Positions 919-57,699 of a DNA stretch of 64,000 nt are shown piece by piece. Position numbers and translations under genes: made by a program. Position 1 is the first letter of the stretch. Every line of letters starts with the position of its first letter. Source of the DNA: a virus (taxonomy: Duplodnaviria; Caudoviricetes); the IMG/VR virus record IMGVR_UViG_3300031548_000003, positions 9,521-73,520 of that record, one strand, 5' to 3'. The notes beneath the pieces are model-generated. The model searched no databases. It saw only the letters and a program-made list of their open reading frames with translations, and was not told the origin of the DNA.

Positions 919-1938
919 TTAATATCCCGTGTACATTTCCTCTTCTTGAGGACTTAGTTTATTATCTAAATAATTAATAGCAGGTTCTATTTTACCAGAG
1001 ATACCTGGATGAACATTATCTAATTGATCGAAGAATCTCTTGTATTTATTTCTAGCTTGATACTGCCCTGCTACAGGGGCTATTCTACCAGCTAGATTAT
1101 AGAGAGAGTTATTCAAATTCTGACGACCTACCGATCCGATTTGACCATAAGCTGCTTGCTCATTTTGATACTGATTCAGATCTTGTGGGTAGAAACTTGC
1201 TTGATTTTCAAATATGTTTTGAGTTTCATTCAACCTCTGCCCTAACAGATTATTATAATTTGCTGTTTGTTCTCTGCGGATATCGTTAGCTAATGGTATA
1301 AGTTCCATACCCGCTCTGCGTCTTCTGTTTGCAGCTACTTGCGCATAAGAACCAAAAGCCCCTGCTTGTCCAGTAGAGGCTGTCTTAGCGTTTTGTAAGT
1401 CTGACAGATATTGATCTTGTATCTGAGCTTCTGCCGGAGCTAAAGCCGATGCAGTATCATAAGTTCCTTCAGATGCTGCCCGCAGTGCTTGTTGAAGATA
1501 TAAATCTCGTTGGGGAATAGCAGGTCTTCCAGGTCTGCGGGATTTTGATAATCCTTGTTTAGATTGATTGATCTGAGCAACTGATTGAGCAATATCCGTC
1601 GCCCCAAGTAAAACATTCAGACCTTGAGCAATTTTGTCAGAATTAGCTTTAGCCTCACTTTCTTGAGCTAACTGCAAAGCTTGTTCCCGATAGGAAGGAT
1701 TTTGCAAAGCTTGTTGTCCAGCAAGAAGCGCTGTCTCGGCAGTGAGATTAGGGGGAATAGTTTTATCTTCCTTTGATAATTTTACAATCTGATCATTTAA
1801 TTCTGACAATCTCTTTTTGTCATTTGGATCAGGAGTAAATTCAGCAAAGAATCTAAAATCCTCATTGCTTATACGATCACCTCCACCAGATTGAAGTCTT
1901 TGTAGAATCTGGAGATATCTTTTTAAATCTTCTTTCAT
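919..1938 (-). CDS. Putative virion cargo/ejection protein (339 aa)
   Basis: Gln/Ala-rich and helical-looking; lies downstream of the muzzle gene where crAss-like/T7-like podophages encode internal proteins. Confidence 0.45.
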   Translation of the reverse strand: MKEDLKRYLQILQRLQSGGGDRISNEDFRFFAEFTPDPNDKKRLSELNDQIVKLSKEDKTIPPNLTAETALLAGQQALQNPSYREQALQLAQESEAKANSDKIAQGLNVLLGATDIAQSVAQINQSKQGLSKSRRPGRPAIPQRDLYLQQALRAASEGTYDTASALAPAEAQIQDQYLSDLQNAKTASTGQAGAFGSYAQVAANRRRRAGMELIPLANDIRREQTANYNNLLGQRLNETQNIFENQASFYPQDLNQYQNEQAAYGQIGSVGRQNLNNSLYNLAGRIAPVAGQYQARNKYKRFFDQLDNVHPGISGKIEPAINYLDNKLSPQEEEMYTGY

Positions 1939-2537
1939 TGATATAAGTTTCTTAATCTACGATTAGGATTTATACGCTGGTTATAGTCCTCTATTTGATT
2001 CATTTGATTATGATACGATACATCTGAATCATTGTATTGTTTTTGTGCGGTACTTACCTGATTAAGCGCATTATTCTTTTCACGCGTTTGTCTTCTTTTT
2101 CTGGATCTTCCGCCTATCAAAGAGCCGCCTAATCCAACCGCTGCACCAACAGCAGCCCCTAACGGACCAAATGCAGCCCCTGTTTGAGCACCTTGAATAG
2201 TGCTTGATGCAACTTCTCCAAATGTTGCCCCTTGAGGTTTAGCTGCAAAAGCCTGAGCTTGTAAATCCCCAGCGGTATAAACAGGTCTTCCATATATGTC
2301 AGTCTGAGGATTTATGTTTGTATCAAGATTAAGTCCTTGCTGACTCATACTATAGATATTTGTACCTAATGCTAAAGCACCCAGACCTGTATCCGCATAA
2401 GAAGATATATTGGGGGAAGTTTTAGGCATGGATGGAGGAGTCACTCTCAAATTAGGATTAGGCCCGCCTTGAGGCATTCTTATGGGAGTTGGATTTTTCC
2501 AATTATTGGTACTTATACCGTCAAAAAAAGGATTCAT
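1935..2537 (-). CDS. Putative ejection (pilot-like) protein with Gly-rich hydrophobic segment (200 aa)
   Basis: GAQTGAAFGPLGAAVGAAVGLGGSLIGG followed by a basic stretch (RSRKRR) is typical of podophage membrane-inserting cargo proteins. Confidence 0.5.
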   Translation of the reverse strand: MNPFFDGISTNNWKNPTPIRMPQGGPNPNLRVTPPSMPKTSPNISSYADTGLGALALGTNIYSMSQQGLNLDTNINPQTDIYGRPVYTAGDLQAQAFAAKPQGATFGEVASSTIQGAQTGAAFGPLGAAVGAAVGLGGSLIGGRSRKRRQTREKNNALNQVSTAQKQYNDSDVSYHNQMNQIEDYNQRINPNRRLRNLYQ

Positions 2538-5500: not shown

Positions 5501-6379
5501 CGTAAGTGATGTTGAAGGTATTGCTGTAATCTCCAGCAGAGACGCTGTAGGTACAAAGATATTGTCAGCCGTATACCCTGCTGCACTAGCTCCTACATTA
5601 TCAATCACTGCTAGTTGAAGATAATCAAAATTATCAGTCTCAGCAGTTGATGGTGTAATAGAAAGAGTAATCTTACGAGATGTCAACAATCCTATTCCAG
5701 CATGTATAATAGATCCTGAATTAGCTGCATCATATACATGAATAGGATTAGTTAAGCTTGACCATTTAGTGAACCTCTTGTTTGTAGGGTCCGCCATGCG
5801 ATAGGTAAATTGATATGTCCCAGAAAGTAATGAACCTCCTGAAGCAATAGATGATAATGCTATCGAGCCTACTGCCCCTTTACGTTGAAGGGAAATGTCA
5901 AACGAAGTAAGATAATTTGCAGTGTAAGGAGAAGGTAACTCACATTTTATGAACCTTAATCCTTTATAAAAATCTGTAAAGTATACATAATCAACTCCAC
6001 CTTCTGGATAATTAACTGCGTCAATAAGTCTATCCTGAGTTTCAACACCTTCCTCATACAATTCATACAGAGCGTTGCTATCAATATCATAACACCATAT
6101 TTTGAACAGAGTTGAAGTGATTGTAAAATAGAGATTACATCTTTTAGATACCCCTCCGATCAAGAATTTAACAGGAATAGATCCTATCTCCTTTACAGTG
6201 GAATTATTAATGATATTCTTTAGGAGTGTTGTTCCCTGAATATTTCGAAGGGAATTAAATGTACCATCACCTATTAACTCAAGATTATGAGCCTCCAGGT
6301 ATTGATCCTGACTAATGATTGCTTTTGAATCATCGACGTTTCTGCCTCTAAGAAAATTATTGATTGTCCTTCTAATCAA
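2537..6379 (-). CDS. Tail muzzle / stabilization (nozzle) protein (1280 aa)
   Basis: Large beta-rich protein after the ring genes. N-terminal 'QDQYLEAHNLELI...SLRNIQGT' and 'YFRDEVYRFGVVY' segments resemble crAss-like tail stabilization proteins. Confidence 0.7.
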   Translation of the reverse strand: MIRRTINNFLRGRNVDDSKAIISQDQYLEAHNLELIGDGTFNSLRNIQGTTLLKNIINNSTVKEIGSIPVKFLIGGVSKRCNLYFTITSTLFKIWCYDIDSNALYELYEEGVETQDRLIDAVNYPEGGVDYVYFTDFYKGLRFIKCELPSPYTANYLTSFDISLQRKGAVGSIALSSIASGGSLLSGTYQFTYRMADPTNKRFTKWSSLTNPIHVYDAANSGSIIHAGIGLLTSRKITLSITPSTAETDNFDYLQLAVIDNVGASAAGYTADNIFVPTASLLEITAIPSTSLTFDYKANTRIGTIPLSDIVVDLAQIETVKSLKIKENRLMGGNVKYTPLEFDNGTPSITSGSIATRVDSNQDAYSSAEFSSKYLGYFRDEVYRFGVVYEDEDGNKSPAVALNLSAITGNQITSGTDMKFPGRHVSNTYSLFNTSGYIKGLGLNLNGIVNHPSWAKKIHIVRLQRRKNILFQSPIIPMVDIYGIGALGNYPTVYNNGATVTVADAQPMTAGRILHPKNLFWPQMKGIVPLPDNTGSGTNTKKRGEASLTNQSYSNFLMMWSSPYTTEPYTFIGSEKMSVIDKALLRLDLFTGNPSKTIAVISGDDINTNVSGNFYALNAGDYFFDPNWVAKSIPSFEKNVPIVDSENFVNFGETASVSGVSVMDYEAMQTTGVNLGYKPNIQKSTVIQIGGLRFPDITTQGVTTSTTTNFANGILNSYNNGGGSVIGSSGIKYESFTSVNNNYVTDTTYLPYANFSNRSIVNACNIVNVTLGLGDDRYGDATSFHEYISTGATYTFTPSEVATLESGGSVSVNMEVWGGDCFIGSQTFKIADSAYSVTNQVTASQGADQLISKWGLYYLNSYGRAMCIPVALENVGQYITVILESEYNGSVRDFDTLVERSPAVNGMPVVNNTSNEVIRAPLSYSYNINLSKQNSDKIYVTKPQYSFVENEFPARMIWSDIKIYNSDQAGFDIFRSADFYDLEEQRYGITKLALAGDNLYAIQEKGVTYIPTGERQIEQTNADTLAVRSGDVIGRPVVVDSQRGSQHIRGIVETGNVIYLPDNINKSIYALSGTDLQPITKDNETLFRTLFSNTLNESEVIGFYDFIRDEYLLIAGGRVEVFNPKIGWVGDYEFTPSSGVFNKNLFVTGKVGSTLSIYSMYTGSVNQLFGVTVTPRVKVCINPEGEIAKTFDVLMLPATEALDEGDMVIEQDTARGNQTISGINFDVPSIENVFKMPVGRDSNKARARGMRALLTIKWKNIQSALSSLHTKYYPSKRTPF

Positions 6380-7762: not shown

Positions 7763-8263
7763 TTAGAGTACACAGACATTAAACTCTACTGAGTTTTCCG
7801 GTAAAGTTTTATCTGGACATATACTTAGAAATTTGAAATAATTTTGAGTATCATTAGCTACATGGCCTTCATAAATTACATCTTCAAAGCGTATAGGTTT
7901 TTTCGTCTTCGGATCTTTGATAGGTTTCTTAGTTCCAGGATATTTAGGTATAAATACTTTCACTTCTCTTCTAAAACTATCAACAAATATTTTCTCTACG
8001 AACGAGACGTTATCAACATCTAAAGCGTGGTTATAAAATACAATCAACCCAAATTGATCAACTTTAGGTATCTTTAGTTTTTTGAAGAGATTCCTAAATT
8101 CTTTTGTAAACTTCTCCTCTAGTTTATGTCTTACAGTCCAGTGCCTTGATTGATATATATCGTTAGTTGACGGTATATTCCCAATAAACATAACAGAGTG
8201 TACTTGTTTAACTATTCCAAATGTTCTGAACAGCCCCAATAGTCTTCTGAATATCTCACTCAT
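7763..8263 (-). CDS. RusA-like Holliday junction resolvase (166 aa)
   Basis: 'IPSTN', 'LDVDNV', 'K-x3-D' and 'ANDT' follow the RusA acidic catalytic motif pattern. Confidence 0.55.
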   Translation of the reverse strand: MSEIFRRLLGLFRTFGIVKQVHSVMFIGNIPSTNDIYQSRHWTVRHKLEEKFTKEFRNLFKKLKIPKVDQFGLIVFYNHALDVDNVSFVEKIFVDSFRREVKVFIPKYPGTKKPIKDPKTKKPIRFEDVIYEGHVANDTQNYFKFLSICPDKTLPENSVEFNVCVL

Positions 8264-8898
8264 TGTGCGGATTGGACTCCCGTATTTCTTAAATTGACAA
8301 TTAATTCTTCATCTCTTATTCCCACTCCAGCAAGCTTCACTGCACCGAAGATTACCTGATTCATGACGTAATCATCCCAATCAGGGCTGTTACCATCTGT
8401 CATTACTTTAGGAGTTTTAATCACTGTAACAGACACTGGCAGTGTCACAGTTGGGTACAATCTATAACCACCTGCTGTTATGGTGAATAACGGATAATCA
8501 GTCTCCGGTGCTTTAAACACATTGTTTTTATAGGCAAAGAGATTATTGTGTTTTACAAATTTGATTAGAATATCACCTTGAGCCAAGGCTAGTATTCTAA
8601 ATACCGAGCACCCACTGTCACCACTAGCTGTTATCAGTGCAGTAGTTAATGCTGAGTTTGTAAGTATACTAGCAGATGGGGCTATGGTAAGGGTATAGAT
8701 TAGGGGTTTTATATTCTCGATAGTATTTGAATCCATCTCTACATTCACTACTCCGCCTAAGCTATCAGGTATGAGTTTGTTTAATACCTCTTCCTGAGCC
8801 ATATTGAGGTGGCCAATCCATTCATCATCCTCTATTGATGGTGATCCCCACTTATCAGCAAGCGTCTTACACCTTTCTATCGCTACAGCAGTAGTCAT
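8260..8898 (-). CDS. Tail ring / adaptor protein (212 aa)
   Basis: 'DDEWIGHLNMAQEEV' N-terminal helix pattern and position in the ring cluster. Confidence 0.55.
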   Translation of the reverse strand: MTTAVAIERCKTLADKWGSPSIEDDEWIGHLNMAQEEVLNKLIPDSLGGVVNVEMDSNTIENIKPLIYTLTIAPSASILTNSALTTALITASGDSGCSVFRILALAQGDILIKFVKHNNLFAYKNNVFKAPETDYPLFTITAGGYRLYPTVTLPVSVTVIKTPKVMTDGNSPDWDDYVMNQVIFGAVKLAGVGIRDEELIVNLRNTGVQSAQ

Positions 8899-8900
8899 AT

Positions 8901-9452
8901 TTAGATGTTATCCTTTCCTACATAGGCTATTAATCCTACAGGTGGCGTAGGAGTTGTTGCATATACTCTTCTTACTGCAATTGATGATTCTTCCCCTTGG
9001 GCGATATAAATTGTAACAGGTGTATCAGCAAGGGCTGTCCCTGAGAGATCACCAGTGGCGTTCGCTATTGCTATAGTGCTATTAACAGCACCAGTGAATA
9101 CTAACTTTGTGCTTGTGCTTCTGACTTTAATATTAAGAGCAGATAATGATGTTGTATGTGTACTTACAAAATTGGTTGCTGTTGTAGTTAATGAAGATGA
9201 AAATGTAACTAGGTATGCTGTACCATTAATTGTAATATTAGCTGTACCTGATGTCCCTGTTAAGGTAAATCCCGCAGGGCTTGATTGAGCTGCTGGCATT
9301 ACTCTTACAGTACCCCCTGCTGCTGGATTGTGTACATAACACATTGTGTATCCGTTTGGATTATTTGGGTCATCCTTTACATCAAGTGTGTCACTACTCG
9401 TTATGGCAAAAGCATCCGAAGATTTAAGAGAGAGGAATTGATTAGCGGACAT
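8901..9452 (-). CDS. Probable virion accessory protein (183 aa, Thr/Ser-rich)
   Basis: Beta-rich, T/S-rich; preceded by a candidate late-promoter motif at 9481-9493. Confidence 0.4.
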   Translation of the reverse strand: MSANQFLSLKSSDAFAITSSDTLDVKDDPNNPNGYTMCYVHNPAAGGTVRVMPAAQSSPAGFTLTGTSGTANITINGTAYLVTFSSSLTTTATNFVSTHTTSLSALNIKVRSTSTKLVFTGAVNSTIAIANATGDLSGTALADTPVTIYIAQGEESSIAVRRVYATTPTPPVGLIAYVGKDNI

Positions 9453-9498
9453 TCTTAGTTATTTTTAGTTATTCTGTAGTCAAAAATTGTACCGTAAA

Positions 9499-9894
9499 TT
9501 AGTTACCAGAGGCGCTCATGTTGATTGATTCTCCAAGTTGATCAAAGAACAACGAGGACAGTTCTTCGAACTTATTAGCCGCTATAAATGCAGCAACAAT
9601 AACCTCTGAACTTACTGGTGCAGCTCCTAAGTCAATCGACATTGATTTAGCCAGTTTACACATCTTCAGCCCTAATTGATGATCAGTTGATATGAAGTCA
9701 TTAAGTAATAAATTTACTGAGTTAATTCTGTCTTTTGCCCACTTAATACGTGCGACCTCATTTGCTAATCCTGCTCCGTCATGTAAAGCCCAGTAAGAGG
9801 CATAGTCTCTTAATGCCCACTGCACCTGTGCTACAAAACCTGAATCATTTTGTAATGATTGTTTTTCTTCTGATGTCAATACTCTGAATGCCAT
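9499..9894 (-). CDS. Hypothetical protein (131 aa) downstream of the tail fibre, possibly a fibre chaperone
   Basis: Clean ORF in the structural operon; function inferred from position only. Confidence 0.4.
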   Translation of the reverse strand: MAFRVLTSEEKQSLQNDSGFVAQVQWALRDYASYWALHDGAGLANEVARIKWAKDRINSVNLLLNDFISTDHQLGLKMCKLAKSMSIDLGAAPVSSEVIVAAFIAANKFEELSSLFFDQLGESINMSASGN

Positions 9895-39202: not shown

Positions 39203-39613
39203 TCACTCTTCTATAGATAATTCTTCACTTGTTAATACAAAGTATAAGTTTTGAAGTTGGTGGACGTAATTAATCCATTTGAATGTAGCAGCAATATGAT
39301 GACTTGCGTGATCGCAACTATGTGTGAATCCGAATCCACCGAGATAAGTATTTTCAGGTGGCGTTTCTGTATAGAACAGAAGAACGGACTTCTTTGCCCA
39401 ATATGGATTATTAACATTCTCAATCCACCCACGACTCATCTTGAGAAATCCAAACCTCAGCAACCATTCTTCGGTGAGGGGGATAGGCTGGAACATTGGC
39501 TTCATTAGAGTTGAATACTCAAAGTTTGTTATATCGTTTGCGGACAAGGGGTATGCTTCACTGGTCTTCGCTTTAAAAGCAATATTCCCTATCCTTAAAT
39601 CTGATGCTTTCAT
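39203..39613 (-). CDS. Conserved Bacteroidota-phage hypothetical protein, YopX-like (136 aa)
   Basis: 'DLRIGN...PIPLTEEWLLRFGF...YVHQLQNLYF'. Confidence 0.55.
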   Translation of the reverse strand: MKASDLRIGNIAFKAKTSEAYPLSANDITNFEYSTLMKPMFQPIPLTEEWLLRFGFLKMSRGWIENVNNPYWAKKSVLLFYTETPPENTYLGGFGFTHSCDHASHHIAATFKWINYVHQLQNLYFVLTSEELSIEE

Positions 39614-39656
39614 AATTTAGTTAAACGTATTTAGATAAATTAAGTTACAGTTTTTG

Positions 39657-39990
39657 CAGAGACAATGCTTGATTTGTAACTACAAAGAATAAAGTAATTA
39701 CCCCTGCCTGTGATATTTAAGATTTGAGATAAATTGCCTATGATCATGAATCATTACCGGGGAAACCGAATATCTAAGGTAAATGGATCACGGGGTAGGC
39801 CGTACTCATTTGGTAATGGCATTAATTATAGGTCTTTGTAGTGCTCGTTCCAAGCATCGGGGGGATGCAAGTTTAGCTCAGACTGCGTGCTATATAGGTG
39901 ACCCTACTCTAATCATTAAGATAGGTATTTGTCCAGAATACAACGATTAGAAAAGTAGGGTCAATATTTTATTACTCTGGACTAGAGTAA
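39657..39990 (+). ncRNA. Candidate ~330-nt structured RNA, family unknown
   Basis: ORF-free, with many nested helices: 39665-71/39851-57, 39679-88/39833-42, 39707-14/39787-94, 39900-08/39954-62, 39909-14/39945-50, 39972-78/39984-90. Strand inferred from a G-U pair and an upstream promoter-like motif. Confidence 0.5.
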
Positions 39991-40045
39991 CCTCTCAATA
40001 TCTATGCCGAAATTTAGTTAATTTTTAGTAACTTCAGTTCTTAGA

Positions 40046-40134
40046 GTTGGTAGAAACAGTACCAAGAGAATCGCCACTCTTTTATGACACAAAGTCATTT
40101 TGGTTTTACCGATATGCCGAATTACACTACCAAC
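40046..40134 (-). ncRNA. Structured element D (89 nt)
   Basis: 8-bp terminal inverted repeat gttggtag / ctaccaac enclosing hairpins ATGAC/GTCAT and AAGAG/CTCTT. Confidence 0.45.
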
Positions 40135-40147
40135 CTAAAAACTTTCA

Positions 40148-40318
40148 ATTATTCTACCTAGTTTCGCCCCCTGTATCCCCAGCTATCCACTTTATCAGTG
40201 TGGTGCTAAGAAGATGTTTAAGGTACGCCTTAACGACACTTGCTGATGTGGAGGTGTACCTAAGACCGTTTTAGCCTTCATCCAACAAGTTTGAGGGAGC
40301 CATCCCTATAAGAATAAT
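40148..40318 (-). ncRNA. Structured element C (171 nt)
   Basis: 8-bp terminal inverted repeat attattct / agaataat; internal GGGA/TCCC, AGGTAC/GTACCT and CCAC/GTGG helices; begins 3 nt after tRNA-Thr. Confidence 0.5.
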
Positions 40319-40321
40319 CTG

Positions 40322-40394
40322 AGCACCATCGTGGATTCGAACCACGTTCTTCCCGTCTACAAGACAGGGCTTCACCATTCAAAGCTTATGGTAC
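40322..40394 (-). tRNA. trnT: tRNA-Thr(UGU), slightly atypical
   Basis: Acceptor GTACCAT/ATGGTGC; anticodon arm CCTGT-CTTGTAG-ACGGG; T arm CGTGG-TTCGAAT-CCACG. D-arm junction non-canonical; no encoded CCA. Confidence 0.7.
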
Positions 40395-40399
40395 TTTTG

Positions 40400-40577
40400 C
40401 GAACGAGACAGGATTCGAACCTGTAAACCACACATGCTATTCAGGTTTTTATGCCTGAATAATATCAGTTATTACAATCCAGTACCTTATAGGCATATGA
40501 TACTACTTAGCTGGTATCGATCTGCGGTTACAACTGTTTGCTTTTAAAATAGCGTCTACCAATTCCGCCACTCGTCC
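40400..40577 (-). tRNA. tRNA-Leu-like gene interrupted by a 90-nt insert (40458-40547)
   Basis: Acceptor GGACGAG/CTCGTTC, Leu-type D arm TGGCGGAATTGGTAGACGC, T arm ACAGG-TTCGAAT-CCTGT; 178 nt in total. Confidence 0.7.
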
Positions 40578-40581
40578 ATAA

Positions 40582-40816
40582 AAAACTAACTTGTCCATTT
40601 CCAAGTGGAATACCTGCTTTTACAACTTGCTAGTTTGGCTAACACCATAATCTGTTGATGATCATGAGGTATCTTACAATAAACATCATCCTCTTGGCAG
40701 GAATGTAACATTGGAAGCTATTTTGACACCATTAAATAGAGTTTAACTCCATATAACCGCTTCTCGGGACTAACCAATCAGTCAATGCTACTGTTTATCT
40801 TCAGCAAGTTAGTTTT
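40582..40816 (-). ncRNA. Structured element B (235 nt)
   Basis: 12-bp terminal inverted repeat aaaactaacttg / caagttagtttt; internal hairpins GACTGA/TTAGTC, GTTAG/CTAGC and a CCTGC/GCAGG helix; G-U pairs favour the minus strand. Confidence 0.55.
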
Positions 40817-40823
40817 ATGTTTT

Positions 40824-40962
40824 AAAACATTAGAACAGTAGTTTTGAGTATCCTATCCTACTTAGCTCAGAGACCTTCCAAGATACCATCAACGTTCTCG
40901 TTACCTCACGATAACTGGTTACTGTTGGATTTGAACACAACTCGCCAAGCATCTAATGTTTT
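40824..40962 (-). ncRNA. Structured element A (139 nt)
   Basis: 11-bp terminal inverted repeat aaaacattaga / tctaatgtttt; GTTATC-GTGA-GGTAAC GNRA hairpin, ACAGTA/TACTGT helix, T-loop-like TTCAAAT hairpin. Confidence 0.55.
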
Positions 40963-40963
40963 G

Positions 40964-41036
40964 TGGAACCCTGAGGAATCGAACCTCATTAGCTGAATTT
41001 TCAGTCCAGTGCATACACCACGTCTGCCAGAGTTCC
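40964..41036 (-). tRNA. trnF: tRNA-Phe(GAA)
   Basis: 73-nt cloverleaf: GGAACTC/GGGTTCC, CTGGA-CTGAAAA-TTCAG, TGAGG-TTCGATT-CCTCA. Confidence 0.9.
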
Positions 41037-41528
41037 AGAATTAAACGAGTTTAGGTATTTAAACGTTATATTTAGTTAAAAAGTTTCAGGATCAAACGAG
41101 AAAATAACCCCTTATGTTCCTCACAGTAAGCTTCATTAATATCTTTTAGTATTATTCTACAACTATTACAAATAGCTACAGGACTACCTGAGTTATATTT
41201 TATTAGGGGCTTTATTTTTCGTTTAAATTTCATCATCAAATAGTCTCATATTCCAAATCAAACGAAAAGAAATTCCTCTAAACCAATAATAACCGTCTAC
41301 TTAATTCCCTTTCAAACATCCAGTCAACACAATAACTTCCTCCCTTTTCTGCCCATATCATCTGATCCTCTCCATTTAAATAAACCCTATAAGATATATG
41401 AGGCTCATCTTCGCTATAATTTCCATGTCTACTAGAAGGTATATAAATAGTCTTCTTTTCTACTTCATATCCTAACCTATTAAGGTAGGCTACTTTTTCT
41501 TCAAACGTATAGAATAATGTAATGTGCT

Positions 41529-43304
41529 TCATATTCTTGAATGTCTAATTGGGTCTAATCCATTACAGGTGTACCCACAGTAGTCTTTATTAATTTTTAA
41601 GATTACAGGGCTATCTTTCTCCGTTTGAAATCCACCAGTCTCAACTTCCTTTATCTTGGCTACATGTACCTGTAGATTCTCCCGTTCAAAAGGATGATTA
41701 GTTAATCTGTGAAGAATTAAAAAATCATCTACCTTATTGCTTTTCATTACACCCATTTCAGTATCTCCTTTAATTGGTACTAGGATGTAACCGTCTTTAT
41801 CCTTCTTCCTGGCGGCTTCAGAGTTGATATGATCACACACCCACACTGATGAATAGTTCTCCTTGAATACTCTGAGGATGTTTAGAGAATGAATTAAATT
41901 CGAGTATCTGTCTACGTTCTTAGGGGGATCAAAACTATTCCAGGGTTCGGCTACTAACACTTCATATTGAAACCCTTCATCATGAATGATTTCTGCTTTT
42001 AACAGAAAATCCTCTAGGGTATGAAATTGTTTTGAACTTATAATCCTGAAATGTTTTTTTACGAATTCGTGAGACTTAGTTAATTCTTCGCCATCCATTA
42101 ATTTTAATGGTTTTCCGATATAAAATTCCTTCAGCTTCTTTCTTACCATTCCATCCCCGTTTTCAGCAGAATGAATTAGAATCTTCCACCCATGAAGTCT
42201 AGCAGCAAGAACAGCCAAATACCATACTAAATAGCTTTTGCCTACATTATCCAGTGCAACACACCAAACAATATGATGTTTCTTAAACATCCAATAAGGG
42301 TTTAAACCGTTCAATCCGGTGGGCAGCCCCATTTCAAGAGTTCCATTTATAACAGCTAATTCATATTCCAGCATCTCACTTTCATCAGCTAGAAAGTCAT
42401 AACTGCCATCTTCTCTTCGTAAGAATTGCTGTGACTTCTCAATCTTCTTGCTTTCTACAAGAGGTTGTGCTTTTCCATACCCTATTCCATCTAGAATAGT
42501 CTGGTGCGCTCCATCAAAATCTTTTGGCCCCTTGGCCTTTATCTCCTCATCTAGGATTTTAATAGCCTCTTCCTCATTTACTCGTCCGGTAGCTATGTAC
42601 CCACCTAAGAGTTTTGCAGCTTTTAAAAGAGTCTCATGTTTATTCCCATCATAACTAGATCTCACCATTCCTACAGCAGTAGAGATGACCTGATGAGTTC
42701 TGCGATTAGCTACTTTCTCTTTGTTCTTCTTCCTATCCTCTTCCTTCATCCGCTTGTCCCATACCAAGGCATTAGGATAGATGTAGATATTTGGGTCATA
42801 ACTTTCGTAGGTTCCTCTGGAGATGTTTCTCGAAGTGGAGTCTAACTCTGGATATCGGTCAAGGAATGCGGTATAGTAGAGGTTATGATTCTCGATGGAA
42901 GCCGGACATTTAACGAGAGCCTTTACTCCCAATCCACTAGGACCAATCCAGGCGGCATAGATATAAGGGTCATTCTTTAACTGCTCTATTTTCTGAATTA
43001 CATCACATTTGTCCCAATCAAGAACAAAGACCCCTGAATGTTCAGTTACGCAGTCATCTAACCGACAGGTATTGTAGGTTCTACCCTTCTTGGTTACTTC
43101 TTTAGGTTCTACTTTTGCAGCACTAAATACAACGAATGGTAACTCCTCTTTATCTTCATCATAATTCTCCTCTGCCCCCGCCTTTCTTCTTATTTCATTT
43201 ATCTTATCTTTTGATTTACCCTCTCTTATTCTTTCTAAAGCCCTCTCCACTGAGATATAAAGAGGATTGTTAATGTCTCCGTAATTCTTAAAAATGGTTA
43301 TCAT
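41529..43304 (-). CDS. Primase-helicase: BT4734/VirE-N-like primase domain + DnaB-like (SF4) helicase (591 aa)
   Basis: 'HSGVFVLDWD...GPSGLGVK' N-terminal domain; Walker A 'ALDNVGKS' and Walker B 'LVAEPWN'. Confidence 0.8.
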   Translation of the reverse strand: MITIFKNYGDINNPLYISVERALERIREGKSKDKINEIRRKAGAEENYDEDKEELPFVVFSAAKVEPKEVTKKGRTYNTCRLDDCVTEHSGVFVLDWDKCDVIQKIEQLKNDPYIYAAWIGPSGLGVKALVKCPASIENHNLYYTAFLDRYPELDSTSRNISRGTYESYDPNIYIYPNALVWDKRMKEEDRKKNKEKVANRRTHQVISTAVGMVRSSYDGNKHETLLKAAKLLGGYIATGRVNEEEAIKILDEEIKAKGPKDFDGAHQTILDGIGYGKAQPLVESKKIEKSQQFLRREDGSYDFLADESEMLEYELAVINGTLEMGLPTGLNGLNPYWMFKKHHIVWCVALDNVGKSYLVWYLAVLAARLHGWKILIHSAENGDGMVRKKLKEFYIGKPLKLMDGEELTKSHEFVKKHFRIISSKQFHTLEDFLLKAEIIHDEGFQYEVLVAEPWNSFDPPKNVDRYSNLIHSLNILRVFKENYSSVWVCDHINSEAARKKDKDGYILVPIKGDTEMGVMKSNKVDDFLILHRLTNHPFERENLQVHVAKIKEVETGGFQTEKDSPVILKINKDYCGYTCNGLDPIRHSRI

Positions 43305-47019: not shown

Positions 47020-47950
47020 TAACGAACACTTATCTAATTTAGTTACATCATTTTCTAAATTAGTTACAACTCAATCCTAAGCCCTAGGAGACTCTATAAT
47101 TACTGGGATGATTACAGATAGGTCTAAAATAATCTCTTCCTATAAGTCAATTCTGAGGGTATAGGAGAAAATCCTCTGTTTCTGTATAGAATTCAAGGAT
47201 TTATATAATTTTTTGTATGTGGAGTATGGTTAATCCCCTACCCACCCCCGTCTTTTTACCCTAAAGTTTGACATACCCCCTGGGATGATCAATTCCCCCT
47301 GAAAAAGCATTCTTTATTTCCATAAAACTATTGAAGTAAAGGGCTGGGATGATTACAATACCTCACCTGACACCTCACCTGATTAGGGTAATACCTCATT
47401 TTTGATATTGAAAAGGCTGTTTTTATTAGTCCTGTCAGGACTGCGATAACATTCAGTAGTCAAGTACGAAAGTATTCGTAGATAATAGATTATTACTCTA
47501 CTCTTTGGATTAATAGAGGCTATTAAACAATTAAACTAATTATTGATGAAACTTTATTGATCAAGCAAACTAATCACTAATAAACTATTAATTATTCAGT
47601 AGATTATTTGGATAGTTCCCGATAAAACACAAAGAATATTCTGAATTAATGTAATTAGGCATTATACTAACTCAAACAAGAGCTTTTTAAGCTTAAATTG
47701 GAATATTTACCCCACACTACAACGCGCCCGCAAACCTTTCTCTTCTCTCTTAGTGTAATTGCTTTTATAGGTAATTTGATATATGGGTTTAGGGGGTTTG
47801 TTTCTCGTTTGATTTTGAAAATAGTCTTTTTTATTATTTAAGGGGATTCTTTTCTCGTTTGATTCCCAAATTGAGACTAACTAAATATTTAAATTATTTT
47901 TAGGTAATCCCTTGACTTTTAACCTAAATTAGGTATCTTTATATCATAAT
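47020..47950. other. Non-coding divergence region between the leftward and rightward gene blocks
   Basis: No substantial ORFs; direct repeats ctgggatgattaca (47103, 47344) and acctcacctga (47360, 47372); two copies of the dispersed motif. Confidence 0.6.
47912..47941 (+). promoter_or_regulatory. Host-type (Bacteroidota sigma-A) early promoter
   Basis: TTGACT-N16-TATCTTTA resembles the -33 TTG / -7 TAnnTTTG consensus; 10 nt upstream of the first rightward ORF. Confidence 0.55.
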
Positions 47951-47951
47951 A

Positions 47952-48125
47952 ATGAATACGAATATGACAACATACAAAAACATTCTAATTGGGCTGTTAG
48001 TTTTAGCGATTGGTTTAAGTATCATAGCCGGAGGCGATATTGTAGCAACAATTCTAGTTGGGCTAGTATTAACCATAGCAATGATTGCTAGGTTTACAAT
48101 GTACAATAATATTAAAAACGACTAA
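47952..48125 (+). CDS. First early gene: small two-helix membrane protein (57 aa), absent from the ORF track
   Basis: Translated by hand: MNTNMTTYKNILIGLLVLAIGLSIIAGGDIVATILVGLVLTIAMIARFTMYNNIKND*. Confidence 0.55.
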   Translation: MNTNMTTYKNILIGLLVLAIGLSIIAGGDIVATILVGLVLTIAMIARFTMYNNIKND

Positions 48126-48136
48126 ATACAATAATT

Positions 48137-51100
48137 ATGAAAACACAACATACACCAGGGCCTTGGAATGTTGTAAAAAAGCCTTCTATGTTTATTGATG
48201 ATTTAGAAATATCAATAGATATGATAGATACTAAATTTGGGCCAATTTGCAAGGTAATTGGGTCACGACATAATGCTAGCTTAATTGCGGAAGCACCCGG
48301 AATGCTTGAAGAGCTTGAGAAGGCGCACGAGATTATCCTCGTAATGCTCAACGCTTTGCCAGACCGTTTAAAACCATCTGTTGCAAAAAAACTTTACGAA
48401 CGAGGTATTGCAGACGATGGAATGACGCGTTCGCATGAGCGCGAATCAGTGATTAGAAAAGCAAAAGGACTATGAAACTTTAAACACAATAATTATGAAA
48501 ACCACATCAATTCAAGTAATTCTAGCTTTTGTACCTAAAAAGCAGGGCAAAAAATAATTAACTTTCAGCCTTTAAAACAAACGACTTATGAAGCCTAAAT
48601 TTGAAACGGGTGCAACCACTCATGAGGTGAATGATCTTATTTTATTCGCTGAGAATACAAGAAAATTAACAGAATTAAGAGATACAATCTATATGCAGGC
48701 TGTTAAGCCTTCAGATAATGATATTTTAAAATCTCATCTATCTGGATTTTTTGGTAATGGTGAATGCGAAGGATATGCAGGGACAATACAAGACCGCGTA
48801 AAAACAATTTTGCATAAAAGATTTAATCGGCTTTTTTACGAAACTGTAGAGGCTTACAAAAAGGAATTTCCCGATAATCATTATAAAACAAATGGAGACG
48901 TTGGTAAAAACGTTATTTCGTATCCTCAACAAGAGGAGTTTTGTAAACTCTACGCAGAGGACTTCGAAAACTGGAAGAAAGAACACGGTTAAAATAATTA
49001 ACTTTCAATCTTTAAAACAAACGACAAATGAAAAACGAAACTTACATACGTGTAATACCACGCGATTTATTTAACGAGGCAAAGCTTCTTAAATGCGTTG
49101 GCAAGTTGTGTCTACTCATTCATGATAATTCAAATCTACCCGCAAAAATTGAATTTGAACACGATGGAAATCCTTTCAATATCGAATTATTAGAGGAAGG
49201 CAGTTTAACGGTAACAAATATTCGATTTAAAATTGAGGGTAAGGAATACTTATTTAAAACTACATATAACAGCAAGGCAAATTATCCATTCTATTTGCAA
49301 ACGGAGGAGTTTGAAGATCGTGAGGTATTTGATGAATTTGGAAGTTTTAGCCCTGATTTTATAACGTTTTGCAATGGACTTCCTGAGTAATTCAGGATTC
49401 AGCCCGGGCCGGTTATAGTCGTTTGTTTCCGTGCCCTGGGCTTACTTAAAAACGACTTTACATCATCAATTAAAACATACAGATATGAACACAATCAAAA
49501 AACTTATTATTGAAAACAGTTATAACGAGGAAAATTTAGACATCATCATTGACGCTCTAAAATACAGAGCTACAGAAGCCGGTTGTACAGTAGACGTTCA
49601 GGGAAATGATATTCAGTTTTATTGGGACCAGGATATTATAGATATGTCAAATGGTGCGCATGACCTAGACGTATACCAAAACGCCATTATCGAAAATACT
49701 ATCGAAGATTTAAGATTAGAGCACTCAGAATTATTTTAAACCCATTTATCTAAACATACAGATATGAAAACAGCACAGAGCGATTTAGTATACAGCATCA
49801 AAAACAATAATCTTTCGATTAAAATTGATATGCTCTTAACACAAGAAGACTATGATGCAAATTGGAAGGGTGAAAACGGTTCTGACGGATATTGGACTGA
49901 TAACGTTACTAAGATATATGATACAGTAAGTTCATTCGCGAATGATGAGTTTGGGCTTGATTTACAAATATGGGAAGAGGGGAATGCGTTTGTTCAGAAT
50001 CTGAATCCTAAAAAGCTCAACGAAATTGTTGAAGCTCTTGAAAAAGCTTTCGATGAAAAATTTGATATAAGAGAAAGATAAAATCATTTAACAATACAGA
50101 TATGAAAACTTACTTAGCATTTTCAACAGAAAACAAAGCATACATTTGCGAAGCAAAGAGTAAAAAACAAATGAAAGAAAAAGGAATGAACATGAAATTG
50201 GACTGGCAGGAAAGAGAGAATTTTGAAAAAGCAAAAAATGAAATTCTTTCTTCAGGATACGAACTAACAAATGCTACTAGATTACAGACACTTTAATTTT
50301 AGATACTGATTAAAAAACTAACTAATCGCACCAAAGCCTCTTAACGGAGGCTAAGGAACCGGCACCAAAAAACCATAACAGAATGAGAAAATCACAATTC
50401 AAATCACAAGCTGAAAAAAGGGCTATAAACGAAATTAGTGTATTGTGCTTTTACATGGCGTACCAATACCGCTGGGATGATTCACAGACAGTAGATCCGC
50501 AATATGGTTATGTTACATACCATTTAACTGAGGCAACGGCAATTAAAGCAGCGAATGCAATCAAATTAGATTTAGGGTTTGAGGCAATTGTTGAAAGGCT
50601 TTCTATTGAATATTCAGATTTTAATGAAGGCATTGAATTTGGGGAAGAATTTGAACTTGAAAATTTGGATGATTACAAAAAATTCATCTCTCTAGAAAGA
50701 GACCGGATTTACACAGGTGCATTCAATAATGGTGGAGACCTACCTGAAGATGGGTTCATAGTATATTATCGTCATCACCGGTATTTGAACTATGCCTATA
50801 ATATTGAATCAATCGAGCCAGTTGCTTATTCACGCCATAAAACATTTAGTGATTTAAGAAATGATTCAGACTCCACTATGACCAGCTACGCATATGTTGC
50901 AACTGATATTGATGAGCTGGCGGAAAATTTTGAAAGAGGCAGCGTAAAGCCTTTTGACAAAATAAATTCAGGAAGCAGAATTATACGTGAGTTTTTGGCC
51001 GAACAAGGTCATCCTAATTACACTATTCCCAAACCCTTTTAACTAACCAATACAAACATGGAAAGAATAACAAAAAACAGTACCACCACCGAAAAAGCAT

Positions 51101-52355
51101 TTGCCCTATCGGCTGTTCAAGCTACTATCTTGAACTTAAAGTATATTGAAAAACTAGGACTTGCAACCGCGAACACAATCGCTTCTGTAGAAGATTTGAA
51201 AGTATACGAAAAGCAGTTGAGTGATTACATCAGGTCTGAAAGAGAAGAGAGTAGGATATCTCTAAATGAACTTCTAAATAAGCTTTTAGGAAGATGAGAG
51301 TGTTTAACTATAACCACAATCAATGTTTACCTTTTTAACCTAAAATTAACTAAATATGAAAAAAGACATTAATCAGGTATTAGCTGCTTATTATGCTAAT
51401 CAAAACTCAGTTACCCAATCTTGTATTAAGGGGGCTGTTTCTCGTTTGATTTTGAAAAGTAAATAACTAAACATTCAGAGAACTAGCCGCTAAATTCTCC
51501 ACAAGTATTTCAAATATAGTAACAGTGTGTAAACATAAAACTTGGACTGATTAAACATTAAAATTTTATGGAGTCTAAAATAAAACTTCCACTTTTCATA
51601 GTTGAAAAATCAAACAGCTATTGGATAATATGGGATACTACTACTCATGAAATAGTAGGTACATTTGAAACAAAAGAAAATGCAGAAGCTAAATTAAAAA
51701 CCCTTTAAATTTAAAAATTATGACTAGAGATGAAATAGCATTAAGAATTCTTACTTCTGATTTAATCGAAAGATTAATAACTGAAAAGCAGCAATCTGAT
51801 TTACGCGCCCATCATGTCATGGATACTCCGTTGCTAGCATCAGAAAGACTAAGAATTAGCTTTGAACTAGCTGATGAATTTATATCTCAATCTGAAATGA
51901 GAATAAAAACTGAAGGAAATAAAACCTTCCAATTCATCTTAAAAATAGAAGCAGATACCCTAGATGATGCGATTTTAAAAAATAATCTAAAAGGTAAAGT
52001 TATTATGTGGCAAGAGATAGACAAAAAATCGAATCTTGGATCTCAATTGTATAGTCAAATATTACCCAGTCATTTGACCTAAACCAAACGATTTGAAAAT
52101 ATGAAAATATCAATCACACTTAGAGAATTCGAAAATGCCGGCGGCAATCCTACCAAAATGAATATAGAAAAGACATTTGTTACCTATGGTGATAAACACA
52201 AAAACAAACCTATTAAGAGTATAACCTTTGATTCTAATAATAGCTCAGGTGGTAAACTTTGGAATGTCTTTTTTAAAGATGGGAGTACTCATCGGTATTC
52301 AGAAATGTGGATAACAACCGAAGTAGAATTTGTACTATCAAAAGAATACGTTTAA
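48137..52355 (+). other. Cluster of about 12 short early (host-takeover-type) ORFs of unknown function
   Basis: Co-oriented 60-220 aa ORFs with shared leader sequences, downstream of the early promoter. Confidence 0.6.
48551..49030 (+). repeat. 40-bp direct repeat (48551-48590 and 48991-49030), each copy ending in a start codon
   Basis: aaaataattaactttcagcctttaaaacaaacgacttATG vs aaaataattaactttcaatctttaaaacaaacgacaaATG; 36/40 identical. Confidence 0.85.
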
Positions 52356-52413
52356 CTCCAAAATCAAACGAGAAAAGAATCCCCTATATTAGTAGTAAAC
52401 TAATACAAAAACT

Positions 52414-55970: not shown

Positions 55971-56037
55971 GTACAAAATACCTTATCAGGCTGATAATCG
56001 GTGTGTTACATATTATCCCATACATCATGATTGTAAT

Positions 56038-57699
56038 TTGTCTAATCCTGTTATTTACACTATGAAAACCATAAAAGATTTTACTCCAGAAATTCAGGCT
56101 AAAATACCTCAGTATCAAGTCAAGGCTTTAGAAGGTGTTTTCGATGGAGGTCGATACAATCGCTTTAACTATGGGCATGCCTATGAAGCAGTGTGCCTTC
56201 AATATGAGAAATGTGGTTATAAAAAACCTTTAATGGTCGTAGCTGAAAATCCTTATGAAGCACAGCTACTGTATAATTTTATAAAACATTTATTTACTCC
56301 AGAGATACACGCAATCCAGTTGTACTCGCAATTGGACTCGCAGTTGGGCTCGCAGTTGAACTCGCAGTTGCGCTCGCAGTTGGGCTCGCAGTTGGACTCG
56401 CAGTTGTACTCGCAGTTGAACTCGCAGTTGCGCTCGCAGTTGGGCTCGCAGTTGGACTCGCAGTTGGACTCGCAGTTGCGCTCGCAGTTGGGCTCGCAGT
56501 TGGACTCGCAGTTGTACTCGCAGTTGGACTCGCAGTTGAACTGGCAGTTGAACTCGCAGTTGGGCTCGCAGTTGAACTCGCAGTTGCGCTCGCAGTTGGA
56601 CTCGCAGTTGCGCTCGCAGTTGGGCTCGCAGTTGGACTCGCAGTTGTACTCGCAGTTGGACTCGCAGTTGGACTCGCAGTTGCGCTCGCAGTTGGACTCG
56701 CAGTTGGACTCGCAGTTGCGCTCGCAGTTGGGCTCGCAGTTGGGCTCGCAGTTGTACTCGCAGTTGGACTCGCAGTTGAACTGGCAGTTGAACTCGCAGT
56801 TGCGCTCGCAGTTGGACTCGCAGTTGCGCTCGCAGTTGGGCTCGCAGTTGGACTCGCAGTTGAACTGGCAGTTGAACTCGCAGTTGCGCTCGCAGTTGTA
56901 CTCGCAGTTGCGCTCGCAGTTGTACTCGCAATTGGACTCGCAGTTGTACTCGCAGAGAATCCAATATGTTAATGATTACTTATTTACATTAAACATTTAT
57001 TCATCATGCTTATTTACATGGTGGAATTTTATTGCAAACGAGTTAAATATCAAGGCTCCAATAAAAAAAGAGTTAGAGATGTTTAGTTCAGCATATGAAA
57101 AATCAAATATTTATTCAGCTATATTTACCGAAGCAGTATGTATAGTAAGTAAGTTCCCTAAAGCAATACATAGAAACTCCAATAATGATCTTCATAGTAC
57201 TAATGAATCTGCTGTAGAATGGGCATCGTTCTCCGATCTTACAAAGTGGGAATGTTTTTATGTAAATGGACGATTGATTGATAAACAAATTTTCTCTAAA
57301 GTAGTTGAGAATAAAATGACCTTTGAGGAATTTGTTAAGATTCAGAATGAGGATGAAAAAGGTATAATCATTAGCATGATCAAAGAGAATAAAGGCAATG
57401 AGGGACTATTAAATTTTCTTCAAGCTGTTGAAGTAGATTCTAAAACTATCAGGCATACAAAAGATTATTCCGAAACTATAAAGTTGTTTAAGACAAAACA
57501 ATCCTATTCTTTTTTACAAAATTCAAAAGGTGAGCTAAATCAACCGTACGCATGGATACACATGGTATGCCCATCTACTCGTACGGAGTATTTGATAGAT
57601 ACCTGTCCCACATTTACAGATGCAATTGAATGTGCTAAATGGCACAGGCCAAAACAAGTTCCTAAAGAACTAAAATACGAATGGATCAGTGCGAATTAG
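56038..57699 (+). CDS. DUF6745-like protein with a 52-unit SQLx repeat (553 aa)
   Basis: C-terminal 'AVEW...NG...IQNEDEK...CPSTRTEY...AIECAKW' family pattern; central tetrapeptide repeat. Confidence 0.65.
   Translation: MSNPVIYTMKTIKDFTPEIQAKIPQYQVKALEGVFDGGRYNRFNYGHAYEAVCLQYEKCGYKKPLMVVAENPYEAQLLYNFIKHLFTPEIHAIQLYSQLDSQLGSQLNSQLRSQLGSQLDSQLYSQLNSQLRSQLGSQLDSQLDSQLRSQLGSQLDSQLYSQLDSQLNWQLNSQLGSQLNSQLRSQLDSQLRSQLGSQLDSQLYSQLDSQLDSQLRSQLDSQLDSQLRSQLGSQLGSQLYSQLDSQLNWQLNSQLRSQLDSQLRSQLGSQLDSQLNWQLNSQLRSQLYSQLRSQLYSQLDSQLYSQRIQYVNDYLFTLNIYSSCLFTWWNFIANELNIKAPIKKELEMFSSAYEKSNIYSAIFTEAVCIVSKFPKAIHRNSNNDLHSTNESAVEWASFSDLTKWECFYVNGRLIDKQIFSKVVENKMTFEEFVKIQNEDEKGIIISMIKENKGNEGLLNFLQAVEVDSKTIRHTKDYSETIKLFKTKQSYSFLQNSKGELNQPYAWIHMVCPSTRTEYLIDTCPTFTDAIECAKWHRPKQVPKELKYEWISAN
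56326..56955 (+). repeat. Coding 12-bp tandem repeat, 52 full units of TCG CAG TTG NNC
   Basis: The variable codon takes only GAC, GGC, AAC, CGC or TAC; three units have TGG in place of TCG. Confidence 0.95.

Follow-up and report, generated by a model that had tools for sequence, protein, structure and literature searches.

A phage tRNA array with two structured RNA families outside Rfam 15 and three further stem-closed modules

What is encoded between phage transfer RNA (tRNA) genes when the stretches that separate them have ends that pair with each other? The question is raised by about 1 kb on the minus strand of a viral sequence in IMG/VR (record IMGVR_UViG_3300031548_000003; 73.5 kb, estimated to be about 60% complete, G+C content 35-40%), of which positions 9,521 to 73,520, a stretch of 64,000 nt called the window below, were analysed. 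Small stable RNAs in phage tRNA clusters have been known since the species 1 and species 2 RNAs of phage T4. A preliminary description of the window had read this region as a head-to-tail array of tRNAs and several discrete structured RNAs of no known family. The array contains two RNA families that are new with respect to Rfam 15 and well supported, in an arrangement like that of T4: a 235-nt element, termed B, and a pseudoknotted cargo held in a tRNA-Leu-like shell. Three more elements, A, C and D, are unproven modules. In the order of the minus strand, the array consists of the following.

40964-41036, minus: tRNA-Phe (GAA), no encoded CCA; called by ARAGORN, 49.3 bits with the Rfam tRNA model
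40824-40962, minus: element A, 139 nt, orphan; 11-bp closing stem, 40824-40834 with 40952-40962
40582-40816, minus: element B, 235 nt; 12-bp closing stem, 40582-40593 with 40805-40816; identified by a homologue in contig L053, IMG/VR members, alignment A4 and nhmmer
40400-40577, minus: tRNA-Leu-like shell with cargo; identified by the Rfam tRNA model and cargo homologues
40322-40394, minus: tRNA-Thr (UGU), no encoded CCA; called by ARAGORN, 32 bits with the Rfam tRNA model
40148-40318, minus: element C, 171 nt, orphan; 8-bp closing stem, 40148-40155 with 40311-40318
40046-40134, minus: element D, 89 nt, orphan; 8-bp closing stem, 40046-40053 with 40127-40134

The array spans 40046-41036, with gaps of 1, 7, 4, 5, 3 and 13 nt between successive neighbours, and occupies a 1.6-kb gap poor in open reading frames (ORFs) and flanked by small minus-strand ORFs; the genes in this half of the window are nearly all on the minus strand. 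The modules and gaps were found where the preliminary description had placed them, and the four closing stems, of the lengths given there (11, 12, 8 and 8 bp), are perfect inverted repeats. For the tiling test, two spacers were dinucleotide-shuffled and inspected for stem-closed modules with gaps of at most 13 nt. The 386-nt spacer between tRNA-Phe and the tRNA-Leu-like gene was tiled in 0 of 1000 shuffles, at least one module with a closing stem of 11 bp or more arising in merely 15 of 1000, and the 276-nt stretch past tRNA-Thr was tiled in 2 of 1000. As shuffled spacers tile this rarely, the layout of stem-closed modules is real and far beyond chance.

Folding energy is weaker support than tiling. 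Against dinucleotide shuffles, the z-scores of whole modules were about -1.0 for A, -3.2 to -3.5 for B, -3.0 to -3.1 for C and -2.3 to -2.5 for D; after removal of the closing stem they were +0.58, -1.54, -1.87 and -0.39, respectively, the interiors of A and D folding no better than shuffles. The minus-strand preference proposed for both A and B was borne out in energy terms for B alone (-3.23 on the minus strand, -0.91 on the plus strand). The GNRA loop reported in A is present, as a GUGA hairpin at 40900-40915, but A folds no better on the minus strand. The modules showed no similarity to one another in an internal comparison. Searches with Rfam 15 of the window at gathering thresholds, of 39500-41500 at E ≤ 10 and of 13 other loci returned tRNAs and noise alone, in keeping with several discrete modules of no known family rather than one large RNA and with the reported lack of a GOLLD or ROOL signature, and neither ARAGORN nor Rfam called a transfer-messenger RNA (tmRNA) in the window. 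tRNA-Phe(GAA) and tRNA-Thr(UGU) were recovered on the minus strand as predicted. Conservation and covariation, which had been proposed as a check, were found in other phages for B and for the cargo of the tRNA-Leu-like shell; no homologue of A, C or D was found.

Comparison across phages indicates that element B is a genuine structured RNA gene of a family outside Rfam 15. Its parts, all on the minus strand, are as follows.

40805-40816 with 40582-40593, minus: closing stem P1
40798-40804, minus: CUGAAGA
40792-40799 with 40678-40685, minus: helix P2
40689-40703, minus: hairpin P2b, loop GCCAAG at 40693-40698
40668-40677, minus: GUAAG junction and 5′ strand of P3; 3′ strand of P3 at 40610-40615
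40594-40609, minus: hairpin P4, UCCA-CUUGGAAA-UGGA

The first homologue was reached through a weak blastn match to contig L053, whose primase is 67% identical to the BT4734-like primase encoded at 41529-43304 of the window. An ORF-free gap downstream of the L053 primase, from which it is separated by several small ORFs, holds a tRNA-Leu-like shell, an unrelated stretch, the B homologue and a second shell. In both B copies the 5′ arm is followed by CUGAAGA and the 3′ arm preceded by GUAUUCCACUURGAAAUGGAC, and the closing stem is preserved between them through three compensatory pairs. A scan of IMG/VR with the pattern TATTCCACTTNGAAATGG gave 34 hits. In 24 of these, a closing arm comes after the pattern, and its partner arm, 144-260 nt upstream, is itself followed directly by CUGAAGA; the remainder equals the number of hits expected by chance.

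The consensus of the family is a perfect four-way junction. The closing stem P1 (7-13 bp) leads into a two-pair helix CU/AG, a GAA/GUA internal loop and P2 (GAUAAAC with GUUUAUU), after which come a variable insert, hairpin P2b with the loop GCYAAG, P3 with a variable interior, and P4 (UCCA-CUURGAAA-UGGA), whose 3′ strand is continuous with P1. The loops of P2b and P4 are complementary and covary: GCCAAG occurs with CUUGG in five sequences, including B of the window, and GCUAAG with CUUAG in all others, so that the kissing pair is C-G in 5 sequences and U-A in 19, with no exceptions. Since one of the two columns is N in the search pattern and the other lies outside it, this correlation is not an ascertainment effect. 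In alignment A4, 96.8% of cells pair, versus 34-42% with slid partners, both-side changes occur in 23 of the 37 pairs, and 0 of 500 shuffles attained any of the observed measures. A G-U pair is kept in 22 sequences, and the strand of B is therefore fixed. CUGAAGA is kept in 20 of 24 aligned members, the others having CUGAAU or CUAAAG (L242, L264, L267 and L277, the last from a metagenome-assembled genome, MAG).

A profile hidden Markov model used with nhmmer identified 31 members among the gathered loci. B of the window, which is itself included in the profile, scored 94.7 bits (E 5.5e-27) and has the stem, CUGAAGA, P2, the GCYAAG hairpin, GUAAG, P3, P4 and the complementary loops that define the family. 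The profile found no member in T4 or in about 1.9 Mb of other phage loci, blastn found none in the cultured phages of INPHARED, and Rfam gave no match to B in the window or in seven other B-bearing loci. Among prokaryotes represented by one genome per species (185,579 species), there were only three true members, all on MAG contigs of 2.7-3 kb (Roizmanbacteria, Flavobacteriales and Sediminibacterium); as prokaryote genomes hold B on such short contigs only, the family looks phage-borne. In three contigs of 100-370 kb (L241, L258 and L271), B lies inside a tRNA array, separated by 1 nt from the preceding tRNA and by 4-8 nt from the following one, and in L245 a tRNA follows 8 nt downstream with none adjacent upstream. 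B directly precedes a tRNA-Leu shell in the window, L053 and L265.

The arms of B follow one another as closing stem, long arm, variable arm and a short hairpin stacked on the closing stem. Together with the loop-loop contact, this order may mirror the acceptor, D, anticodon and T arms of a tRNA and their D-loop/T-loop elbow, but B has no tRNA sequence signature. In the record of L262 (G004), two matches to the 5′ part of B (47984-48019 and 48183-48385) lie about 200 nt apart, which suggests tandem copies. In L265, a shell, the B member and a second shell lie next to a match to the tmRNA model at 963-1194 (32.4 bits, below threshold, E 2e-9), which may be one more large tRNA-shell RNA.

The gene at 40400-40577 had been counted among the tRNAs of the array. 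Its homologues point instead to a tRNA-shaped shell around a conserved pseudoknotted cargo, and to neither a decoding nor an intron-bearing tRNA.

40571-40577 with 40401-40407, minus: acceptor stem of the shell
40552-40568, minus: D arm of the shell
40408-40424, minus: T arm of the shell
40530-40536 with 40466-40472, minus: cargo helix P1
40523-40529 with 40426-40432, minus: cargo helix X, which crosses P1
40477-40518, minus: cargo P3 core
40439-40460, minus: terminal hairpin of the cargo

The Rfam tRNA model aligned the acceptor, D and T arms of the shell, with a score of 28.9 bits against a threshold of 29 and 108 extra nt separating the D arm from the T arm; ARAGORN, which called only tRNA-Phe and tRNA-Thr, made no call here. 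An anticodon arm with a conserved 7-nt loop was not found in the shell: the window has a hairpin with an 8-nt loop, CAUAAAAA, in place of which homologous shells have a GAAA tetraloop (L007 type) or other loops. This hairpin (40439-40460), readable as an anticodon arm, appears from the comparison to belong to the cargo.

Matches to the cargo were found in a Proteus P22-like phage (84.6% over 87 nt) and in Flavobacterium phage FL-1, and two scans of IMG/VR for it gave 25 loci. It resides in tRNA-Leu-like shells of several subtypes (FL-1, L007, L016, L292, L293, L295, L299 and the group L008/L013/L015/L294). Without tRNA parts, and with a closing helix of 10-11 bp, it occurs in the Proteus phage and in viral contigs mostly from isolate genomes and of prophage type; the shell-less contigs are of two sequence types. 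The conserved core reads GAUACCAG-CUAAGUAGUGUCAUAUG-CC(loop)GG-UA-CUGG-AUC-GUAAUAA. P3 covaries (CCAG/CUGG, CCGA/UCGG, CCGG/CCGG and CCAC/GUGG), and P1 shows compensatory changes (CAGUU/AACUG, CGGUU/AACCG, CUGU/ACAG and CAUUAU/AUAAUG). Helix X keeps a fixed register, always ending 4 nt before GAU, with a sequence that differs per lineage: AACCGCA/UGUGGUU in the window and GUUACA/UGUAAC, GCAAGC/GCUUGC, GCGAAC/GUUCGC, AGAGUAA/UUACUCU, GAGCAA/UUGCUC, GAUAGAA/UUCUAUC or GUUCGG/CCGAAC elsewhere. As X crosses P1, the cargo is pseudoknotted.

That the gene is a true tRNA-Leu from which an intron or insert is removed to give a decoding tRNA is, on these grounds, extremely unlikely. Its acceptor, D and T arms do resemble tRNA-Leu, and if about 90 nt were excised, a stem carrying the loop CAUAAAAA would remain. 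Against this stand the non-anticodon-like loops of the equivalent hairpin in homologous shells, the covarying helices that join insert and hairpin into a single conserved unit, the shell-free occurrence of the same cargo and the rejection by ARAGORN. The insert also follows directly after the D arm rather than lying at position 37/38; a group I intron in tRNA-Leu was considered and discarded, the insert being merely about 108 nt long and giving no Intron_gpI match at E ≤ 10.

Shells of this type are common. A Leu D-arm pattern had 103 matches in IMG/VR, of which about 40% are normal tRNAs of 79-85 nt and more than half are shells of 92-221 nt. A second shell is found in the same contig outside the window (G000:C1, about 1874-1985, minus strand; also L002 1420-1530), with identical 26-nt ends and an unrelated 54-nt insert; it lies downstream of genes that, by eye, resemble those for an integrase and an excisionase. 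The first 4 kb of L016 (1-4000, minus strand) contain 10 tRNAs and at least three oversized tRNA-like shells, two with the acceptor AGTCAGG/CCTGACT, and a stem-closed module lies between two shells. With this mixed array in L016, the architecture is not unique to the window.

The nearest relative found was the Logan contig L048, with a primase 85% identical to that of the window. In L048 the equivalent of window positions 41114-41065 abuts that of 40036-39697 directly, and the whole array is absent. A border motif (CTGAA...TTAACTAAAT) is present once in L048 and twice, around the array, in the window.

41070-41089, minus: upstream copy of the border repeat, an imperfect direct repeat (CTGAAAC..TTAACTAAAT), seen in comparison with L048
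40012-40037, minus: downstream copy (CTGAAGTTACTAAAAATTAACTAAAT), seen in the same comparison
41091-41102, minus: promoter-like motif TTCTCGTTTGAT, 54 nt upstream of tRNA-Phe, a copy of TTYTCGTTTGAT

Because L048 joins both flanks directly and the border motif is doubled in the window, the array of about 1.03 kb can be read as a discrete accessory cassette. Primase-anchored relatives were taken from IMG/VR (29 loci), metagenomes (80 loci) and Logan/ENA/JGI; among them, a B homologue was found in L053 alone and A, C and D in none. The anticodon/T-arm pattern of the cassette's tRNA-Phe had 0 matches in IMG/VR.

Within the window, TTYTCGTTTGAT has 13 sites where 1.15 would be expected (about 11-fold excess), a number attained in 0 of 100 shuffles; further sites are, for example, 41257-41268 and 52363-52374 on the minus strand and 47802-47813, 47852-47863 and 51439-51450 on the plus strand. 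The copy at 41091-41102 is kept in L048, where TTYTCGTTTGAT also recurs in intergenic parts. A role as a phage promoter or regulatory box is plausible.

On the 3′ side of the island, window positions 39697-40036 (minus strand) are non-coding and 75% identical over 352 nt to L048 6748-7093, and can form long-range stems such as TGACCCTACT with AGTAGGGTCA (39899-39908, 39954-39963). This stretch may be another conserved RNA or a leader, independent of the cassette. Two other primase relatives, L158 (about 6040-6110) and L238 (about 8010-8060), have in common a short non-coding element, AGCTTAGGA...ACGTACGG.CA.CAG, in an ORF-free gap 3′ of the primase region. The region downstream of the primase appears to be a hot spot for differing RNA cargoes.

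Elements A, C and D are probably further RNA modules of the same kind. Their internal features on the minus strand are listed below.

40845-40869, minus: in A, TGAG-CTAAGTAG-9 nt-CTCA
40900-40915, minus: in A, the GUGA (GNRA) hairpin
40924-40941, minus: in A, T-loop-like GUUCAAAUC
40205-40210 and 40259-40264, minus: in C, CUUAGC and CUUAGG
40046-40134, minus: whole of D, with a hairpin AUGAC-UUUGUGU-GUCAU

The 10-mer AGCTAAGTAG has only two sites in the 64-kb window, one in A and one in the cargo of the Leu shell, on the same strand; AGCUAAGUAG stands in A at the 3′ end of a 4-bp helix strand, the same stem context as in the cargo. A was rejected as a member of the cargo family, no profile match extending beyond the common 10-mer. 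The predicted fold of D is a cloverleaf-like four-way junction with UGU in a 7-nt loop and without a T loop, and D gave no match to the tRNA model at E ≤ 10. A relative of C suggested by a scan with a guessed hairpin motif was dismissed as a single chance match inside a coding region, and a spurious 75-aa ORF over C and D gave no match as a protein query. A, C and D were also absent from the full records of five B-bearing contigs, from T4 and from the first 12 kb of Cellulophaga phage phi14:2; the B and cargo families, too, have no member in those 12 kb.

Taking the locus as a whole, we think it probable that positions of about 40037-41064 form an accessory RNA island of an uncultured, Bacteroidota-type phage, expressed as one minus-strand precursor with two tRNAs and five non-coding modules, of which at least B and the shell with its cargo are, to judge from their conservation, genuine structured RNA genes. 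Transcription would start from the upstream promoter-like motif, and host tRNA-processing enzymes would cut the precursor at the borders of tRNAs and shell, RNase P before each following acceptor stem and RNase Z or exonucleases after the discriminator base, since the three tRNA-type genes have no encoded CCA. The closing stems and the tRNA-like shape would protect the released pieces. As the A/B and C/D borders carry no tRNA, such cutting alone would release the shell RNA but leave A joined to B and C joined to D; their separation would need another nuclease or an action of RNase P on the tRNA-like B. The B members located 1-8 nt from tRNAs in other phages fit release by tRNA processing. With low confidence, we envisage the products as stable trans-acting RNAs that would offer their conserved loops to a host or phage protein, and that might, as decoys or sponges, capture tRNA-directed enzymes or nucleases of host defence.

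Several observations weigh against this account. About two-thirds of the B members have no canonical tRNA nearby, and tRNA processing is therefore not generally required for B; the variation in closing-stem length (7-13 bp) counts against a fixed RNase P 'ruler'; the search pattern itself accounts for part of the invariance of the P4 hairpin; and no protein is conserved beside B, the best cluster occurring in 5 of about 27 loci and belonging to no Pfam family. For A, C and D, blastn and nhmmer gave no homologue among phage loci, related or RNA-bearing, that total about 2.5 Mb, and none of the three interiors is more stable than shuffled sequence. It is accordingly possible, though we would not expect it, that function is limited to B, the shell and the two tRNAs, and that A, C and D are decaying tRNA-like remnants, or inverted repeats at the DNA level that recombination or miniature mobile elements left behind, and merely travel with the cassette. 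Besides the missing homologues, this would agree with the interior z-scores of A and D near 0, with their failure to fold better on the minus strand, with closing stems whose perfect complementarity cannot discriminate strands, and with the island itself being an indel with border repeats. The tiling with gaps of 1-13 nt is, however, very unlikely by chance, and the 73.5-kb contig holds no further copies of A, C or D, as mobile repeats would lead one to expect. A also carries AGCUAAGUAG in the stem context of the conserved cargo, C has several minus-strand G-U pairs and a z-score of about -3, and B had seemed equally orphan before one diverged relative was found.

That the modules function in cis, forming a structured leader that serves the processing, stability or antitermination of a downstream operon of small genes, seems improbable. 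The island does lie between the promoter-like motif and the conserved non-coding region downstream, which same-strand ORFs follow; in L018, a viral contig from an isolate genome, a weak match to the lambda cIII thermoregulator (29.5 bits, gathering threshold 50) lies about 2.6 kb downstream of the cargo, and in Proteus phage Brookers the cargo is located just downstream of a repressor-like gene. Yet the sister phage L048 keeps the same flanks without the island, B members occur within pure tRNA arrays of large phages, and the tRNA-like packaging of the shell implies excision from the transcript. Self-cleaving ribozymes are common among phages in small forms, and the junction of B (CUGAAGA ... 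GUAAG) superficially recalls the CUGANGA box of the hammerhead; that B or other modules cut the precursor themselves is nevertheless quite improbable, B having four helices rather than three and neither the GAAA strand nor the cleavage-site layout of a hammerhead, and no Rfam ribozyme model matching the window or the seven other B-bearing loci. An extension of the island model, in which the modules mimic tRNA and act jointly, is also unlikely to hold: complementary exposed pentamers are present in the modules (GCUAAG in A and the shell cargo, CUUAGC and CUUAGG in C, CCAAG/CUUGG within B), and by docking through kisses like the one within B the modules might form a multi-RNA particle or a decoy platform, by which a tRNA-directed defence or processing enzyme of the host would be disabled. 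In that case the cargo would be a portable unit swapped between Bacteroidota phages, where a tRNA shell holds it, and viral contigs of isolate genomes together with the Proteus phage, where it is closed by a plain helix.

For the island as an RNA cluster, the closest precedent appears to be rnaC and rnaD of phage T4. These encode the species 1 (139 nt) and species 2 (119 nt) RNAs, non-tRNA RNAs of a size similar to that of the island modules and placed, as in the island, head to tail in a phage tRNA cluster; the T4 order of tRNA-Arg, 1 nt, rnaD, 6 nt and rnaC on the tRNA strand shows the same tiling, and the 3′ T arm of tRNA type and the acceptor-like closure of rnaC amount to a tRNA-like shell. 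T4 has two such RNAs, whereas the island has five modules from at least two other families, and nhmmer comparison of T4 positions 68000-75000 with A, C, D, the shell and the B and cargo profiles gave nothing below E 0.5. To our knowledge, the function of the T4 species 1 and 2 RNAs has never been explained. GOLLD (RF02032) and ROOL (RF03087) are likewise phage-borne, located near tRNAs and ornately folded, but each is one RNA of 600-800 nt, in contrast to the several small independent modules of the island, and neither Rfam model had a hit at any threshold. The cryo-electron microscopy structures of GOLLD and ROOL are multimers (PMC12286853).

Measured against tRNA (RF00005, class II tRNA-Leu), the shell retains an acceptor stem of 7 bp, a D arm of Leu type and, marked by GGUUCGAAUCC, a T arm, but lacks an anticodon arm with a 7-nt loop. 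In the engineered 'tRNA scaffold' of Ponchon and Dardel, the anticodon region of a tRNA gives way to a cargo RNA, and the chimera is reportedly processed and stabilised like a tRNA; the shell of the island differs in being natural and of Leu type, and its cargo is pseudoknotted partly with sequence beside the D and T arms. The bacterial Y RNA YrlA (RF02553; PMC4201824) also combines a tRNA-like domain with another module. In YrlA the two ends make up the Ro-binding stem and the tRNA-like domain lies distally, whereas the ends of the shell form the tRNA-like part; Rfam gave no YrlA match, and the surroundings of the island showed no Ro60 gene. Candidate structured RNAs from IMG/VR have been catalogued on a large scale (PMC10690425).

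The island shows the small stable RNAs of phage tRNA clusters to be modular, and adds two well-defined families with testable folds: B, with a four-way junction, a covarying kissing loop and a topology that seems to copy tRNA, and the cargo, found in phages of two phyla in two natural mountings, a tRNA shell or a plain helix. Both offer concrete, mutable constructs with which binding partners and a possible role as anti-defence decoys can be addressed. For annotation, caution is advisable, as many phage genes that look like an oversized tRNA-Leu do not decode.

Two minor observations concern the wider sequence. L050, a relative with a 75%-identical primase, has IS605-type TnpB (OrfB) genes at 697-1884 and 8880-9779, which its near-identical sibling contig L049 does not have at the matching positions. 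In the window itself, positions 56001-57000 form a local peak of G+C content (0.49, versus about 0.35 nearby) inside the ORF 56038-57699.

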